64,000 nucleotides of DNA from contig NZ_CAUDZA010000001.1 in assembly GCF_958453765.1 (NCBI RefSeq), forward strand, positions 150,675 through 214,674. Reading direction: 5' to 3'. Each line of letters starts with the position of its first letter. Position 1 is the first letter of the stretch. A program made the position numbers and the translations under genes. Under the pieces are notes generated by a model. That model did not search any database. It had not been told where the DNA came from and worked only from the letters and a program-made list of their open reading frames with translations. Shown piece after piece: positions 26,324-32,472 of this stretch. The stretch comes from Phascolarctobacterium succinatutens. Its GTDB lineage: Bacteria > Bacillota > Negativicutes > Acidaminococcales > Acidaminococcaceae.

Positions 26324-26408
26324 TGGTGCGAGTGACAGGAATCGAACCTGCACGCCGAAAGGCGCTAGATCCTAAGTCTAGTGCGTCTGCCAGTTCCGCC
26401 ACACTCGC
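26324..26408 (-). tRNA. tRNA-Leu (anticodon TAG)
   Basis: 85-nt cloverleaf by hand folding: GCGAGTG acceptor stem, long variable arm, T-loop GGTTCGATTCC, anticodon loop CTTAGGA, 3' CCA encoded. Confidence 0.85.
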
Positions 26409-26500
26409 ATATAAAATATTATATCATAACAAGAACATCTATGGCAACTGTCCATGTAAACAAAAAGCCGTCCTTCTTTCGAAGAACGGCCTTAAATTCG

Positions 26501-26576
26501 TGGTGATCCACCCGAGACTCGAACTCGGGACACCCTGATTAAAAGTCAGGTGCTCTACCAACTGAGCTAGTGGATC
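26501..26576 (-). tRNA. tRNA-Lys (anticodon TTT)
   Basis: 76 nt; GATCCAC/GTGGATC acceptor stem, anticodon loop CTTTTAA, T-loop GGTTCGAGTCC, CCA encoded. Confidence 0.85.
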
Positions 26577-26578
26577 AT

Positions 26579-26654
26579 TGGCTGGGGCGGCTGGACTCGA
26601 ACCAACGCATGCGGGAGTCAAAGTCCCGTGCCTTACCGACTTGGCTACGCCCCA
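26579..26654 (-). tRNA. tRNA-Gln (anticodon TTG)
   Basis: 76 nt; TGGGGCG/CGCCCCA acceptor stem, anticodon loop CTTTGAC, T-loop GGTTCGAGTCC, CCA encoded; lies 2 nt from tRNA-Lys. Confidence 0.8.
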
Positions 26655-26696
26655 AGCTTATTAGTGGTTATTCAGATTCATCCAAATCTGAAAAGG

Positions 26697-26773
26697 TGGG
26701 GTGACTGGTGGGAGTCGAACCCACGCGTAACGGAGCCACAATCCGCCGTGTTAACCACTTCACCACAGCCACC
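26697..26773 (-). tRNA. tRNA-His (anticodon GTG) with an encoded G-1
   Basis: 77 nt; extra 5' G paired to the discriminator C, anticodon loop TTGTGGC, CCA encoded. Confidence 0.85.
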
Positions 26774-26915: not shown

Positions 26916-27290
26916 TCAGCGGCGGGCAATAACTTCAATTTCTACATGAGCGCCTTTAGGCAGAGCTGCTACCTGTACAAATGAGCGTGCCGGCGGCTCA
27001 ATCTTAAAGGTTTTTGCATAAACAGCATTAATAGCATCAAAATTCTTGATGTCATCTACAAAAATAGTAGTTTTTACAACATCCATGAATCTGAAGCGTG
27101 CTTCCGTCAGGATAGCCTCAATATTGTCTAAAACCTGCTGAGTTTCAGCTTCGATAGAGCTTTGAACCATTTCACCTGTTTCCGGATTGATAGCAATCTG
27201 ACCGGATACAAACAGAATAGAACCTGCTAATACAGCTTGAGAATAAGGACCTAAAGCTTTGGGTGCATTTGTTGTTGCAATAACTTCCAT
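26916..27290 (-). CDS. ridA: RidA family reactive-enamine/imine deaminase
   Basis: About 124 aa from MEVIATTNAPKALGPYSQAV...; a YjgF/chorismate-mutase-like fold; RBS AAGGAGA. Confidence 0.85.
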   Translation of the reverse strand: MEVIATTNAPKALGPYSQAVLAGSILFVSGQIAINPETGEMVQSSIEAETQQVLDNIEAILTEARFRFMDVVKTTIFVDDIKNFDAINAVYAKTFKIEPPARSFVQVAALPKGAHVEIEVIARR

Positions 27291-27315: not shown

Positions 27316-28203
27316 TTATTTACGGGCAAAGTATTTTTTCGCCCACTCTATAGCCGAAGGCGTTGCGGCCATACCGCCGCCTGCGGTTTCCTTCAAAGCA
27401 CAGGGAAGCGCATCCCCCACGCTCTTCATGGCATCAATTGCTTCATCAGCGTTTATAAAGCTGCTGATTCCGGCCAACGCCAGCTCTGCTGCCAACAGCG
27501 CCTGCAAAGCACAGGCTCCGTTACGTTTAATGCAGGGTACTTCTACCAGGCCTGCCACAGGATCGCAGACAAGGCCCAGCACGTTTTTAAAAACAACTGC
27601 TACTGCTGTACCAACCTGCTGCGGTGTGCCACCCAGCATAGAAACCGCAGCACCTGCTGCCATAGCCGCAGCACTGCCGCATTCTGCCTGACAGCCACCC
27701 ATAGCACCTGCCAGAGAAGCGCGCTCGTTGATTACCATACCAATACTGCCGGCAACCACCATACCACGCTGCAAGGTTGCATCGTCCAGTCCGCAGTGCT
27801 TTTTCAGGGTGAAGAACACTCCCGGAAGTACGCCGCTGGCACCTGCGGTAGGAGCAGCAACTATACGGCCCATAGCCGCGTTGCATTCACCAACTGCTGT
27901 AGCATAGATAACTGCATCCAAAGCCTTCTCGCCCAAAAGATTGACAAAGCCTTCGGCGCCTGCAGCTGCAGCCAGCTTTTTGGCATCGCCGCCGGTCAGA
28001 CCGCTATGCGAGCGGACACCGGTTAACCCATGCTCTACTGATTTCTCCATAACGTCCAGCATTTCCTGCATCTTCGCCAGTAAATCTTCCTGACTGCATT
28101 CCAACTCGCGCATATTGTAGTCTATGAGAAATTCGTCTAACGGCTGCTGCCATTCAGCAGCCTCTTTAATCCAGCTGTTCAAAGACAGCATTTCTTTTTT
28201 CAT
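27316..28203 (-). CDS. sdaAA: L-serine dehydratase, iron-sulfur-dependent, alpha subunit
   Basis: About 295 aa from MKKEMLSLNSW...; SDH_alpha domain (GxxGGxAE-like Gly-rich core, catalytic Cys-containing segments). Confidence 0.85.
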   Translation of the reverse strand: MKKEMLSLNSWIKEAAEWQQPLDEFLIDYNMRELECSQEDLLAKMQEMLDVMEKSVEHGLTGVRSHSGLTGGDAKKLAAAAGAEGFVNLLGEKALDAVIYATAVGECNAAMGRIVAAPTAGASGVLPGVFFTLKKHCGLDDATLQRGMVVAGSIGMVINERASLAGAMGGCQAECGSAAAMAAGAAVSMLGGTPQQVGTAVAVVFKNVLGLVCDPVAGLVEVPCIKRNGACALQALLAAELALAGISSFINADEAIDAMKSVGDALPCALKETAGGGMAATPSAIEWAKKYFARK

Positions 28204-28213
28204 GCTGCACCCC

Positions 28214-28879
28214 TTACAAAACACTGGCGATAAAACGCACCGATTCTATCTGCTGCAGCGCACTGATAAGATTGATAATCTCCTGCGGCACTGCCTCATC
28301 ACATTCAATAACCATAGATGCCATACCGCCCTTGTCGCTGCGGAACAAGCGCATTGTAGCGATATTTACGCCGACATTGGCCAAGGTACTGGTAACCAGC
28401 GCAATAACACCTCTTGTATCAATATGCACTGTCAAAATAGCAGGCAGGCGTCCAGTAAGCTCTACAGGGAACCCGTCAATTTCCGTAACCTGTACCTGAC
28501 CGCCGCCAACAGAAGAACCGACGATATCACAACGGGCACCATTTTCTGCAGTCAGCTTAAAAAGCACAGTGTTGGGATGAGCCTTATTGCCCAAATCAAT
28601 TTTATGATAGGAATATTCCAAGCCGTTTTTCTCCGCAAAGCTGTCAGCCTGCGGAATGCGTTCATCATCCGGCAGCCAGCCCATCAGGCCAGCAAGCAGC
28701 GCCATATCCGTGCCGTGTCCCTTATAGGTTTCGGCAAAAGAACCATGCAGATAAATTTCTGCCTTTACCGGTTTAGAGCCAAGAATACTGGCGGCCAAAA
28801 GTCCCAGACGAACAGCACCGGCAGTATGCGAGCTGGAGGGACCAATCATCACCGGTCCGATAATATCCAAAATACTCAT
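28214..28879 (-). CDS. sdaAB: L-serine dehydratase, iron-sulfur-dependent, beta subunit
   Basis: 221 aa; start MSILDIIGPVMIGPSSSHTAGAVRLG plus a C-terminal ACT-like domain. Confidence 0.85.
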   Translation of the reverse strand: MSILDIIGPVMIGPSSSHTAGAVRLGLLAASILGSKPVKAEIYLHGSFAETYKGHGTDMALLAGLMGWLPDDERIPQADSFAEKNGLEYSYHKIDLGNKAHPNTVLFKLTAENGARCDIVGSSVGGGQVQVTEIDGFPVELTGRLPAILTVHIDTRGVIALVTSTLANVGVNIATMRLFRSDKGGMASMVIECDEAVPQEIINLISALQQIESVRFIASVL

Positions 28880-28888
28880 AAAGCACCT

Positions 28889-29329
28889 CTATTCATCACT
28901 GGCCAGCGAACGATGTGCCAGTCCGACACACAGCTCATTGAGATTCAGCACGCCAACGCCCATATAAATAGCAACACAAAGATGCTCTCCGGCGCGAGCA
29001 ATACCTATTTTGCCGCCGACGTTGAAGCCAAAGGCCTTAACCTTCACCTGTTCCAACGCTTCGTGCGCCGCTCCGGCCACAGCACCGGCACCTACATGAG
29101 ATTCGGTTACCAGTCCCTGACGCTGCGCGGCAACTACAGCGCGCTCGACAATTTTTACAATAGAAGGAATAAATTCACCGCCGAAATCAACAGCTGTCGA
29201 ACGGATACCATGCTCCGCTAAGCGTTCCTTTACCTTCGTTTCCTCCATGCGACTGGAGGTAAGTGCAATACGCAAGGCAGCACGGCCGATTTCGATGCTG
29301 TTGATGCAGCTTTTACTACATTCATGCAT
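28889..29329 (-). CDS. HutP-family RNA-binding regulatory protein (paralog)
   Basis: 146 aa from MHECSK...; aligns by eye to B. subtilis HutP along its length (IGR...; ...ESH...HEAL...; G-E-H-L-x-V-A-I-Y-x-G-V-G; NELCVGLAHR vs HETFGVGINH). Confidence 0.6.
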   Translation of the reverse strand: MHECSKSCINSIEIGRAALRIALTSSRMEETKVKERLAEHGIRSTAVDFGGEFIPSIVKIVERAVVAAQRQGLVTESHVGAGAVAGAAHEALEQVKVKAFGFNVGGKIGIARAGEHLCVAIYMGVGVLNLNELCVGLAHRSLASDE

Positions 29330-29378
29330 GTTAGTCACACCCCTCACAAAACTATTTTTATATCAGCAGGCGCAAAGA

Positions 29379-30821
29379 TTACTCGTCCTCTTCAGGAACC
29401 TCTACAACCTCTTTGATTTTATTTTTATCCAGCATTGCTACCAACAGGAAGGTAATAATGCAGATAGGCCATTCAAAGTAAATTACTTCGTTGGCAAAAA
29501 GCGGTTTGATGCCTGCCAGCGGGCTGCCGGGAACAAACCAGAGAGCGATGCCGATAAGGCTCACCAATGTAGTCCAGAAAGCAGAGCTGCGACGGCACAG
29601 GCCGGGAGCGAACATCGTAAAGAAGAACACACAGGTCAGGCCGCAGGTCATAGACAAACCGGCAATCATTGTCTTAACAATGCCTGCCGCATTGAAGGCA
29701 AACCACAGAGTAATCAGGCCGACAGCAAAAACAGACAGACGATTGATGATGACAAATTTATTTTCCGCAACAGCAGGATTAATAAAGCGTTTGTAAATAT
29801 CATTACTGAAGAGCGTAGCCGCACCCAGCAGAATAGTGCAGGCAGTAGATACATCCGCAGCCCACAAAGCAGCCAGAGTTACACCGCCGGCAAGAGGATC
29901 CAGAGTCATAACAACCTTGGGCATAGCAAGTGCAGCCTGTGCCACCGGCATTTCCGGATACATAGCCTTGCAGACAACGCCCAACACAGCGCAGATGAAG
30001 CCAACCGGGAAAATCATCAGGCCGGCCAGAACATAACCGTTGCGGGCAGCCTTGGCATTTTTCGCACCGCAGGCAATCTGTACAGGGCCCTGCGCAGTAA
30101 TAGTCTGGGTAATCATAACGATAATCCAGCCAAGAATAGTAGCAAAAGCCAGGCCTGCTACCGGACTGCCCATAACCTCGGGGTTAGGCAGCTTACTGAG
30201 CACTGCATCCCAACCGCCTACGTTGGATACAGATTGGATTGCAGAGTAGATAATACCGATATAAATCAAGGTAACGCTGACGATATTTGCCAGACCGCTG
30301 GACCAAAGACCGCCAATCAAGGTGATACCGATAAATACCACGGCACTCATAATCATACCGCCATGGAAGGAGAAAATCTCCGGCAACAGCGAGGATAAAA
30401 TCGCACCGCCTGCCATATACTGCAAAGCAGTAATAACGCACATAATGATAACCAGACCAATCGCAGCGATGGCACGGCCTTTAGTATCATAATAGAACTC
30501 AAAGAATTCCGGGATAGTAGAAACCTTCATGGAACGCAGCTTACCTGCTGCCAAAAGGCCCATAACAATAGCACCGATAGACCAGGCACCGTTATACCAG
30601 CCTGCTGCCAGACCAACACTGAAAGCACGCTGAGCTACACCTACGGTAGAAGCGGCACCGACTGCCAGACCGGTAACATTGACAGCTACCAGAATCGTGT
30701 TCAGCTTACGTCCGGCCAGCAAAAACGCTGTTGAACCCGAATCAGCCTTGTGCTTAACCCACAAGCTGATGCCAAAAAGCAACGCGATGTACACTACGAC
30801 AATTACCAACTGAATAGACAT
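29379..30821 (-). CDS. sodium:solute symporter (SSS) family transporter, first gene of the serine-dehydratase operon
   Basis: About 480 aa from MSIQLVIVVVYIALLFG; polytopic; SSS-family N-terminal architecture; the track's 5' extension is rejected. Confidence 0.75.
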   Translation of the reverse strand: MSIQLVIVVVYIALLFGISLWVKHKADSGSTAFLLAGRKLNTILVAVNVTGLAVGAASTVGVAQRAFSVGLAAGWYNGAWSIGAIVMGLLAAGKLRSMKVSTIPEFFEFYYDTKGRAIAAIGLVIIMCVITALQYMAGGAILSSLLPEIFSFHGGMIMSAVVFIGITLIGGLWSSGLANIVSVTLIYIGIIYSAIQSVSNVGGWDAVLSKLPNPEVMGSPVAGLAFATILGWIIVMITQTITAQGPVQIACGAKNAKAARNGYVLAGLMIFPVGFICAVLGVVCKAMYPEMPVAQAALAMPKVVMTLDPLAGGVTLAALWAADVSTACTILLGAATLFSNDIYKRFINPAVAENKFVIINRLSVFAVGLITLWFAFNAAGIVKTMIAGLSMTCGLTCVFFFTMFAPGLCRRSSAFWTTLVSLIGIALWFVPGSPLAGIKPLFANEVIYFEWPICIITFLLVAMLDKNKIKEVVEVPEEDE

Positions 30822-31096
30822 AAAAATTACACTACCTTTCTTCCATGCTACAAAAGCATAATACTTGTGCTGTAAGAATATAAACCATGCTACCATCCTA
30901 CAACGTACAATAATTTGTCTTATATTATACCAACTTTTTTTAGTAAATTAAAGCTCCCGCCAAAACTTTTCTGCAGCGGGAAATTTTTGAAATAAAATTT
31001 ACGTAAAATCTTTCTTGCGCAAGCGTAAGAAAAAGGATTTTATTTATTTTTGTCGAATTGTTTAATGTATGTTGTGATACAATGGAGGAAAGAAAT

Positions 31097-31336
31097 ATGT
31101 TTACTTATAAAACTAGCGGAGTCTGCTCCCGCGAGATTCATTTTGATATAGTTGACAGCAAGCTGCACAATGTAAGCTTTGACGGCGGCTGCCCTGGAAA
31201 TCTGGCTGCTATCGGCAAGCTGGTAGAAGGCAAGGACGCTAAAGCAGTTGCCGATTTGCTCAAAGGCAATGACTGCCGCGGCCGCGGCACAAGCTGCGCC
31301 GACCAATTAGCAAAAGCCATCGAAGAGCATCTGTAA
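31097..31336 (+). CDS. TSCPD-domain small protein (TIGR03905-like)
   Basis: 79 aa; MFTYKTSGVCSREIHFDIVD...VSFDGGCPGNLAAIGKLVEG...CRGRGTSCADQLAKAIEE matches the conserved TSCPD motif pattern; RBS GGAGGA. Confidence 0.7.
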   Translation: MFTYKTSGVCSREIHFDIVDSKLHNVSFDGGCPGNLAAIGKLVEGKDAKAVADLLKGNDCRGRGTSCADQLAKAIEEHL

Positions 31337-31521
31337 GCGCAGCTATTGCGACGCAGACGGTGCTTTATCGCAGTGCCAAACTTATATAGGCGTGGGAGAA
31401 AGTGCCGGATGCTAGGCAATGGCGACGACGGCGTACTTCTTGTACGTCTAGGAGCCGTTGTGACGCAGACGGTGCTTTATCGCACGTCTACATAAAGGAA
31501 GAGGAAAGGAGGAACCCTACT

Positions 31522-32472
31522 ATGTACAAAATTTTAAAAAGTACCGACCAAGGACTGGACGAGCTGGAGCTGGAACATCTGGAAAAGGGCTACTGGCTTG
31601 ACATAGTGGCTCCTTCTGTAGAAGAGCTGCAGGAAATAGCGGCAGCGACAAAAATCCAGATGGATTTTTTGAGTGCCGCACTGGACGAAGAAGAAAAATC
31701 GCGTATTGAAGTAGAAGATGACCAGATTCTGATCTTGGTCGACATCCCTTTTTTACGCAGCAATAAAGATTATGACACCCTGCCTTTAGGTATCGTAGTA
31801 ACCGAAGAAGGTATTGCCACTATCTGTTTGGAACCTAACGCCGTAACTGCAGACTTTGGCACGCACAACAGTAAAATGTTCAGCACCTTCAAAAAAACGC
31901 GCTTTTTGTTCCAGATTCTTTATAAATCCGCTACTCTCTATCTGAAATATATCCGTATCATCATCCGCCGTACGGATGAACTGGAAATTCACCTGCGCCA
32001 GTCCATGGAAAACAGCGAGCTCTTCAACCTGCTTGATCTGCAGAAGTCCTTGACCTATTTTTCCACCTCTCTGCGCAGTAATTCCATTGTACTGGAAAGA
32101 TTGCTGCGTCTGCGTAATGCGACGCAGTCCCAGCATCTTATAAAAGTATACGAAGAAGATGAGGATTTGCTGGACGATGTTATCATCGAATATAAGCAGG
32201 CTGTAGAAATGGTTGAAATGTACAGCCACATTCTTAACAGCATGATGGAAGTTTTTGCCAGCATCATCAGCAACAACCTGAACCTAGTCATGAAATTTTT
32301 GGCATCCGTCACCATTATTTTGGCGATTCCTACACTCATCAGCGGTTTGTGGGGCATGAACGTACCTGTCCCCTTTGCGGAAAACCCCTTCGGTTTCCTT
32401 ATCGTCATCAGTCTGGCGGCATGTATTGCCATCGGCACTGCCTTCCTGCTGTGGAAGAAGAGAATGTTCTGA
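31522..32472 (+). CDS. corA: CorA-family magnesium/cobalt transporter
   Basis: About 316 aa from MYKILKSTDQ (RBS GGAGG); C-terminal two TM helices carrying the GMN signature (LWGMNVPVPF). Confidence 0.85.
   Translation: MYKILKSTDQGLDELELEHLEKGYWLDIVAPSVEELQEIAAATKIQMDFLSAALDEEEKSRIEVEDDQILILVDIPFLRSNKDYDTLPLGIVVTEEGIATICLEPNAVTADFGTHNSKMFSTFKKTRFLFQILYKSATLYLKYIRIIIRRTDELEIHLRQSMENSELFNLLDLQKSLTYFSTSLRSNSIVLERLLRLRNATQSQHLIKVYEEDEDLLDDVIIEYKQAVEMVEMYSHILNSMMEVFASIISNNLNLVMKFLASVTIILAIPTLISGLWGMNVPVPFAENPFGFLIVISLAACIAIGTAFLLWKKRMF

Follow-up and report, generated by a model that had tools for sequence, protein, structure and literature searches.

A divergent HutP-family protein and a conserved GGUAG-type repeat in the symporter leaders of Phascolarctobacterium and other Negativicutes

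In this work, we have analysed the leader and the second gene of an operon on the minus strand of a 64-kb stretch of DNA from Phascolarctobacterium succinatutens (the window, taken here at its full length). The operon runs from the gene of an SSS-family sodium:solute symporter to a hutP-like gene and then to sdaAB, sdaAA and ridA, an order, with the HutP-like protein in second place, that an earlier note on this DNA had proposed and that Pfam and NCBIfam matches confirm. Our results show that the hutP-like gene codes for a protein of the HutP fold, and that the symporter leaders of the window and of its relatives carry clusters of a conserved GGUAG-type unit, one of them on the ribosome-binding site of the symporter. 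We consider it probable that this divergent HutP-fold protein of 146 amino acids (aa) binds RNA and regulates the symporter encoded just before it, that it uses a ligand different from that of HutP, or none, and that it controls symporter translation by repression at the ribosome-binding site.

The repeated unit in the symporter leaders

The promoter of the operon has an extended -10 box, TGgTATAAT (30924..30932, minus strand), recognised by direct reading; its TATAAT is invariant in 19 aligned Phascolarctobacterium leaders, and a consensus scan did not list it because its -35 element is poor. The leader that follows measures ~97 nt, and not the ~120 nt first estimated. It contains four UAG triplets, at 30900, 30892, 30850 and 30834, and two exact copies of GUAGCAUGG (30893-30885 and 30851-30843); promoter, triplets and duplicated motif had all been noticed in the earlier note and stand after small corrections of their coordinates. 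The number of triplets is unremarkable when set against dinucleotide-preserving shuffles (P = 0.43); their 8- and 16-nt spacing is unusual (P = 0.014).

The triplets fall in two sites on the minus strand. Site I (30885..30901), ~20 nt from the 5' end of the transcript, consists of two 8-nt units, G-UAGGAUGG-UAGCAUGG, and matches GTAGNANGGTAGNANGG exactly, with 0.04 matches expected in 64 kb. Site II (30832..30851) reads G-UAGCAUGG-AAGAAAGG-UAG, that is, three NAG triplets in an 8-nt register, and is the sole match to TAGNNNGGNAGNNNGGTAG (0.01 expected in 64 kb); neither TAGNNNGGNAGNNNGGTAG nor GTAGNANGGTAGNANGG has a further match in the window beyond sites II and I. The linker between the sites (30852..30884) is unconserved and holds no terminator-like site. 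The Shine-Dalgarno core AGAAAGG (30841..30835), which we take to be complementary to the 3' tail CCUUUCU of Firmicutes 16S rRNA, lies between the second and third triplets of site II, and so the Shine-Dalgarno sequence is sandwiched between two putative protein contacts.

Conservation in orthologous leaders is the decisive support for this motif. Two sets of 80 loci were sampled, one of genome loci that have the protein and one of metagenome loci that have the symporter; counts were made in 37 dereplicated 150-nt leaders, with expectations taken from a first-order Markov control. The unit (G)GUAG-N-A-W-GG, in head-to-tail repeats with a period of 8 nt, is present in all symporter-upstream regions, and in the logo of 170 units the G before UAG reaches 97%, the U of UAG 79%, and the two positions of the terminal GG 69% and 86%. 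Pairs of UAG triplets 8 nt apart were observed 53 times against 6.1 expected and pairs 16 nt apart 21 times against 5.8, whereas the 7-nt distance, which is the register of B. subtilis, was observed twice against 6.3 expected. Likewise, UAGNNNGG was found 88 times (12.5 expected) and UAGNNNGGNAGNNNGG 36 times (0.14 expected). The bare UAG, which had earlier been taken for the element, is thus part of an 8-nt unit of the GGUAG type, and the 7-nt register of B. subtilis is not followed.

Position is conserved as well as sequence. With hardly an exception, the leaders have site II ~10-30 nt ahead of the start codon (-18 to -30 in the set in which the units were compared), and NAGNNNGGUAG is no more than 45 nt from the start in 63 of 67 dereplicated leaders. 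Most of the 37 also have a cluster of two or three units equivalent to site I, 57-130 nt upstream of the start codon. Near invariance is seen for AGCAUGGAAGAAAGGUAGU in the 19 Phascolarctobacterium leaders and for GUAGAAAGGUAGGAUGG in 10 leaders of Sporomusaceae. The UAG motifs that had been read in the window leader are kept in orthologous leaders of Phascolarctobacterium, other Acidaminococcales, Pelosinus, Sporomusa and Propionispira, and the blocks persist there while the sequence between them diverges freely. In the Phascolarctobacterium alignment the first triplet of site II has U, A, C or G as its first base and an invariant AG, which is the NAG rule of HutP (PMC2425495, PMC12591593). 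Across leaders the clusters hold 2 to 4 units; four consecutive units stand at the start codon in locus L111 (2470-2500), where the sequence is UAGAAUGG-UAGGAAGG-UAGAGUGG-UAGAGU AUG.

The motif is also specific to these genes. The two-unit pattern TAGNNNGG[TAC]AGNNNGG has 76 matches on both strands of the 826 kb of genome loci, and 74 of them lie within 200 nt upstream of a symporter start, on the coding strand. One more covers the Shine-Dalgarno sequence of a stand-alone hutP-like gene (locus L080), and the remaining one lies elsewhere, which is about the chance level. Most upstream regions of stand-alone hutP-like genes are without the motif; besides L080 it is present in L069, a locus with hutP-like, sdaAB and sdaAA genes and no symporter, in which two GGUAG units lie over the ribosome-binding site of the hutP-like gene.

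In 68 of the 80 genome loci the symporter gene is immediately upstream of the hutP-like gene, and the stop and start codons of the two often overlap or nearly touch; in ~10 loci the hutP-like gene occurs without a symporter, in varied surroundings. Serine catabolism, which the earlier note had placed under the control of the regulator, does not prove to be a conserved partner. Only 53 of the 68 pair loci, all from Phascolarctobacterium or other Acidaminococcales, continue with sdaAB and sdaAA, and usually with ridA; the other 15 (Pelosinus, Sporomusa, Propionispira and others) show no sda genes, although the contigs of two of these, L074 and L076, stop just past the hutP-like gene. The motif follows the symporter. 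Since the pair occurs without sda genes, and the motif occurs at symporters without a hutP-like neighbour, the conserved unit is the leader with the symporter; the regulator is usually adjacent and sometimes apparently elsewhere in the genome, and the serine genes are a lineage-specific addition.

Some loci show other arrangements. In a Phascolarctobacterium metagenome-assembled genome (L060, 3242-4074), one of the 15 pair loci without sda genes, the order is symporter, hutP-like gene and ridA, with neither sdaAB nor sdaAA in between. Upstream of the stand-alone hutP-like genes of L032 and L034, at a distance of ~150-260 nt, the sequence resembles the 5' part of the L111 symporter leader, with the -10 box of L111 followed by UAGaugccuuauuugagga and a cluster of UAG triplets; it looks as if the symporter gene had been deleted there and a remnant of its leader left before the regulator.

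Fold and ligand residues of the HutP-like protein

The second gene of the operon (28889..29329, minus strand) codes for the 146-aa protein, presumably an RNA-binding regulator, which matches the HutP family profile PF09021 over its full length (profile positions 1-128 of 128; E = 6e-43; 146.6 bits, the gathering cut-off being 25). The assignment to the HutP family, made at first from the letters, is thereby upheld by a hidden Markov model. Close relatives carry the NCBI name 'HutP family protein', and no NCBIfam model matches the protein.

The relation to B. subtilis HutP is remote, and the two are linked by profile comparison and fold only. The plain alignability along the whole length that had been claimed for them is not found, as a phmmer search against all Protein Data Bank (PDB) sequences returned zero matches, and profiles and a structure model were therefore needed to link the protein to solved HutP. 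A profile of 14 sequences reaches Geobacillus HutP at E = 0.014, and a global profile-profile alignment against the B. subtilis and Geobacillus proteins gives E = 8.4e-6, with residues 6-140 aligned to 1-148. The AlphaFold2 model has a mean predicted local distance difference test score (pLDDT) of 90.3 and a predicted template-modelling score (pTM) of 0.84. When it was compared with the PDB by Foldseek, the top 11 hits were HutP chains, with TM-scores of 0.68-0.73, root-mean-square deviations of 2.7-3.6 Å, ~145 aligned columns and 17-26% identity, and the hits beyond HutP were insignificant, with E of at least 0.02. Membership of the protein in the HutP fold family holds, as judged from this predicted structure. 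The model covers single chains, and the homohexamer with two RNA-binding faces is a feature of known HutP; we infer that the HutP-like protein would assemble and bind RNA in the same way.

In B. subtilis HutP we take His73, His77 and His138 to be the ligands of Mg2+ and histidine, together with Arg88 and Arg98, roles that reportedly go back to the work of Kumarevel et al. in 2005. The profile alignment, in which the placement of these residues is of moderate confidence, sets His73 against Gly82 and His77 against Gly86, both within a conserved GAVAGA helix, puts His138 in a deletion, and aligns Arg88 with Val97 and Arg98 with Phe102. Glu81 is kept as Glu90 and Glu55 as Glu62, and the 8-residue loop between strands 2 and 3 of HutP is missing. 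Since the presumed ligand residues are replaced or deleted, it seems that this clade does not use histidine and Mg2+ in the canonical way, and the different ligand suggested in the earlier note gains support to the extent that these residues are not kept. If the protein depends on a ligand, the effector would be something other than canonically bound histidine and Mg2+, and L-serine is a candidate suggested by the neighbouring genes.

More distant paralogues of the HutP family, at 40-48% identity, were found in L081, L083 and L085. In L081 (2819-7603) the order is malic enzyme, HutP, ABC transporter and isochorismatase, and the other contexts are RpiR-type regulator/HutP and FtsH/HutP/HAD hydrolase. 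No repeat pattern could be recognised near these paralogues, and the HutP family may hold several more undescribed regulons.

Repression, antitermination and other readings of the leader

We propose that, by analogy with the HutP hexamer, the HutP-like protein binds the two clusters of (G)GUAG-N-A-W-GG units in the leader. At site II its contacts would be the NAG triplets on either side of the Shine-Dalgarno core, and because there is no terminator in the window species, binding would bear on the initiation of translation. Most probably a ring of ~100 kDa, placed at -30 to -10, would exclude the 30S subunit from the symporter start. The hutP-like gene has its own Shine-Dalgarno sequence, GAGGGG, ~10 nt upstream, and sdaAB has a strong one, AGAGGUG; indeed each of hutP-like, sdaAB, sdaAA and ridA has a ribosome-binding site of its own. 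Since those of hutP-like and sdaAB are strong and their own, control may fall on the symporter alone, and the four downstream genes need not be shut off together with it. Repression of only the symporter would be a feedback on uptake while breakdown continues, which would reconcile repression with the catabolic genes. The earlier note had already suggested that the protein might act at the ribosome-binding site, and the position of site II on the Shine-Dalgarno core fits this anatomically.

More tentatively, and as something that may well need revision, we hypothesize a fuller scheme. A HutP-fold ring that has lost its histidine/Mg2+ site would sense another metabolite, perhaps the substrate of the symporter, such as L-serine, and would clamp the Shine-Dalgarno sequence between two GGUAG units, controlling initiation and not termination, with the 5' cluster bound on its opposite face. 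This would be the first example of a Negativicutes-wide feedback on a transporter resembling that of TRAP, in which, in Phascolarctobacterium, only the symporter would be throttled and the serine dehydratase encoded on the same mRNA would stay on.

Since blocks of the leader sequence are shared by several bacterial families, some of which also have a terminator, the leader might instead be a riboswitch or another self-sufficient structured RNA, the HutP-like neighbour being a coincidence. We regard this as very improbable. RNAalifold gives the 19 leaders a consensus of -0.5 kcal/mol in which none of the six predicted pairs is compensatory, the window leader folds no better than its shuffles (z = -1.36), and a search of Rfam 15 with the window and ten related loci was negative, for a Pelosinus leader even at E<=10. 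What is conserved are short repeats of a single-stranded type, and the sequence between them changes freely. A hairpin AUGCU/AGCAU just before site II can be seen by eye and is unsupported by RNAalifold.

The earlier note had seen no intrinsic terminator, and none was found in the window leader; its relatives differ. In other Phascolarctobacterium species a G+C-rich hairpin without a U-tract occupies the position of the linker, and in Sporomusaceae the absence of a terminator does not hold. Of the 31 loci without sda genes or with the downstream region out of view, 12 have an intrinsic terminator between the sites (L057, L065, L066, L070, L072, L074, L076, L095, L097, L098, L103 and L104). These terminators share the stem CACUCC...GG(A/G)GUG across genera, several with a UAG in the loop; terminator stems usually drift, and this one is conserved instead.

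Several points weigh against the repression that we favour. Among them are the terminators, which fit badly with repression at a ribosome-binding site. Left to itself, the RNA of 5 of 7 Sporomusaceae leaders is predicted to fold into the terminator (P>=0.93), and the leaders folded show no sign of an RNA antiterminator. The UAGGA of these leaders can pair with the UCCUA of the terminator 5' arm before the 3' arm is made, but this pairing is predicted to lose against the whole terminator, and forcing the units to be single-stranded changes little. A terminator that forms by default, without an RNA competitor, would point to a positively acting antiterminator, as in Bacillus. In addition, repression induced by the substrate fits badly with catabolic genes in the operon, unless the symporter alone is affected.

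The same protein and the same sites might therefore exert positive control, a ligand-loaded hexamer turning the operon on by antitermination in Sporomusaceae and by remodelling or stabilising the leader in Phascolarctobacterium. Canonical HutP is itself a ligand-activated positive regulator of a catabolic operon, the terminator lies only 5-16 nt after block B, read-through of it in Sporomusaceae would need a factor, and with sda genes in the operon induction by the substrate is a natural logic. Even so, we find positive control rather unlikely. Site II is downstream of the terminator, and so it cannot take part in antitermination; it covers the Shine-Dalgarno sequence in essentially all leaders; neither a conserved anti-Shine-Dalgarno element nor a sequestering fold that binding could open was found in the leaders; and the two-unit motif over the ribosome-binding site of the regulator's own gene, in L080 and L069, looks like negative autoregulation.

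Other points against a HutP-like repressor concern the motif itself. The clusters hold 2-3 units and not 3+3, and the register is 8 nt and not 7. The loci are related by descent, and so the counts are not independent events, and the conservation of site II (AAAGG) is partly explained by its Shine-Dalgarno role. Furthermore, the association of the motif with the symporter is no looser than that with the regulator: in five metagenomic loci whose symporter gene has room downstream, no hutP-like gene is adjacent, yet UAGAAAGGUAGGAUGG is present at the start. Given these motif-only loci, the link between protein and motif rests on frequent adjacency and on the precedent of HutP.

It could then be argued that the GGUAG units are not targets of the HutP-like protein at all, and that they serve translation, as Shine-Dalgarno-like or standby sequences, or another factor, the protein having some other role, for example that of a partner of the symporter that binds a ligand. 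Purine-rich and often with an AUG, the units resemble Shine-Dalgarno sequences (AAAGG, AGGAUGG), and they occur at symporters without an adjacent hutP-like gene; the overlapping or nearly touching codons of symporter and hutP-like genes are as in protein complexes, and the residues for ligand activation of HutP are missing. Nevertheless, site I, 57-130 nt from the start, is no ribosome-binding site and has the same unit and register, and a fixed AG with a free first base is the recognition rule of HutP and not that of Shine-Dalgarno pairing. The Phascolarctobacterium units (GCAUGG, GUAUGG) are without the GGA-in-loop form of CsrA sites, the stand-alone hutP-like genes fit a regulator acting in trans, and the HutP-like protein shares the fold of a protein known to bind single-stranded RNA. 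We consider this explanation improbable.

Known systems, the surroundings of the operon and its significance

In B. subtilis, loading with histidine and Mg2+ enables the HutP hexamer to bind NAG triplets, three in each of two clusters, and to melt a terminator; its target is UAGNNNNUAGNNNNUAG, in two copies 12-20 nt apart, with one cluster on each face of the hexamer (PMC2425495, PMC12591593). The protein described here has in common with the HutP of B. subtilis and Geobacillus (PDB 1VEA, 1WMQ and 4OK9) the Pfam family, the fold (TM ~0.72), a similar size and a presumed target of NAG triplets in two linker-joined clusters, and it is encoded in the operon that it apparently controls. It differs in its low identity (17-26%) and in the ligand positions and strand 2-3 loop, which are not kept. 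The RNA unit is GGUAG-N3 in an 8-nt register, in contrast to the UAG-N4 of 7 nt of B. subtilis, and has a conserved GG added; site II is on the ribosome-binding site and not in a terminator, and the linker is longer (~30-45 nt in Phascolarctobacterium). Canonical hutP is the first gene and overrides a terminator, whereas here the gene is second, downstream of the site, in an operon that contains a symporter with or without a serine dehydratase, and no hut genes.

TRAP (MtrB) of B. subtilis forms a ring that recognises (G/U)AG triplets repeated along single-stranded RNA, and it exerts both attenuation and translational control. At trpG, trpP and ycbK it covers the ribosome-binding site and blocks translation, including that of the transporter of its own ligand. 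The likeness to the system proposed here lies in this outline of ring, repeated triplets and position on the ribosome-binding site; the fold is unrelated, an 11-mer beta-wheel as against the alpha/beta fold of HutP. TRAP sites have 9-11 triplets with 2-3-nt spacers, as against clusters of 2-3 units and spacers of 5 nt here, and TRAP acts through an RNA antiterminator, none of which is evident here. A TRAP-type protein was rejected, as the fold search returns HutP only and the number and spacing of the repeats differ. The parallel between HutP and TRAP has been drawn before (PMC2425495). CsrA/RsmA offers a further likeness, being a small RNA-binding protein with sites that overlap the Shine-Dalgarno sequence and a further one upstream on the leader; it reads GGA in hairpin loops, whereas the units here (UAGCAUGG, UAGUAUGG) are without GGA and outside conserved hairpins, and its fold is another one.

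Full-text literature searches found no link of HutP to serine dehydratase, to Negativicutes or to a non-hut regulon, and a 2025 review gives HutP only for hutPHUIGM of Bacillus. As far as the searchable literature goes, HutP is thus regarded as a one-off antiterminator, known only from the hut regulon of Bacillus and its close relatives. What is new in the present case is the RNA unit with its register, the presumed place of action, the ligand pocket, the set of regulated genes and the range of lineages; the fold and the triplet-repeat logic are familiar. With the repeats conserved in dozens of relatives, this suggests a branch of the HutP regulator family that had not been described.

The symporter itself (480 aa; 29379..30821, minus strand) is the first gene of the operon, directly 3' of the motif, and matches Pfam PF00474 with 84.3 bits. 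It scores under every NCBIfam equivalog cut-off, so that no characterised subfamily can be assigned, and its nearest solved relative is vSGLT (E = 8e-14); between Negativicutes families its orthologues are unusually conserved, at 61-74% identity. Its start is the ATG at 30821, where all orthologues begin MSIQ or MNIQ. The ATG at 30896, taken as the start by an open reading frame (ORF) finder, lies inside site I and was rejected on account of these N-termini. That ATG, part of GGAUGG, is in frame with the symporter with no stop between 30896 and 30821, giving an ORF of 505 aa as against 480 aa, and gene callers could thus extend the N-terminus by 25 codons from site I.

Two further features of the window leader touch the sites. 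On the minus strand at 30846-30832, within site II, there is a mini-ORF, AUG GAA GAA AGG UAG (MEER*), that ends 10 nt ahead of the start codon of the symporter. Its invariance in Phascolarctobacterium merely follows from that of the motif; a leader-peptide reading of such AUG...UAG pairs was rejected, as the frame is not kept in Sporomusaceae. At the 5' end of the transcript a small stem-loop, ACAA-AUUA-UUGU (30907..30918, minus strand), was seen by eye and is not called by RNAalifold. At its position L011 has CACAA-AUUA-UUGUG and most other Phascolarctobacterium leaders (L016-L043) have GGUAA-UUUA-UUACC, so that the arms differ on both sides across species (ACAA/UUGU, CACAA/UUGUG, GGUAA/UUACC). 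The arm UUACC is complementary to GGUAG units, and the stem-loop may be a 5' stabiliser.

Downstream of the hutP-like gene, and on the same strand, are sdaAB (28214..28879), coding for the beta subunit of L-serine ammonia-lyase with an ACT domain (TIGR00719, 217 bits, above the cut-off; Pfam SDH_beta and ACT), sdaAA (27316..28224 as the longest ORF; TIGR00718, 289 bits; Pfam SDH_alpha, 247 bits), coding for the alpha subunit, whose start is likely to be the ATG at 28203 rather than that of the longest ORF, and the last gene, ridA (26916..27290), for an enamine/imine deaminase (TIGR00004, 167 bits; Pfam Ribonuc_L-PSP). Directly after ridA come four tRNA genes on the minus strand (26324-26772; His-GTG, Gln-TTG, Lys-TTT and Leu-TAG), a block that recurs after the operon in other Phascolarctobacterium loci; the interval has promoter-like sites at 26894-26866 and 26840-26812, and no terminator is predicted between ridA and tRNA-His.

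On the other side, genes for a TSCPD protein and the Mg2+ channel CorA are divergent on the plus strand (31058-32472) and are syntenic with the symporter operon throughout Phascolarctobacterium and in most Acidaminococcales loci. The interval that separates the TSCPD gene from the divergent symporter gene holds, immediately 5' of the promoter (~30950-30985, minus strand), an inverted repeat rich in G+C (cccgc-N15-gcggg) with agctttaattt after it; this element shows conservation within the species, is terminator-like at -131 in L008, and terminates no obvious gene. Ten public loci encode a HutP-like protein with 98-99% identity to that of the window. Six 'cleanbin' contigs (L005, L007, L011, L012, L014 and L015) carry the operon at 90-99% identity to P. 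succinatutens, and their titles, Bacteroides sp., Escherichia coli, Bacteroidaceae, Segatella copri, Ruminococcus intestinalis and Duodenibacillus, look wrong.

What would the HutP-like protein mean for these bacteria? The locus would represent a second, well-conserved use of the HutP fold, and it offers a concrete protein-RNA pair with natural variants, since the clusters have 2-4 units, the leaders occur with or without a terminator, and the regulator is adjacent or elsewhere. It gives a putative function to the Negativicutes genes annotated as 'HutP family protein', together with the caution that the name HutP does not imply histidine utilisation. It may also provide a handle on the uptake and breakdown of amino acids in Phascolarctobacterium, a common genus of the human gut.

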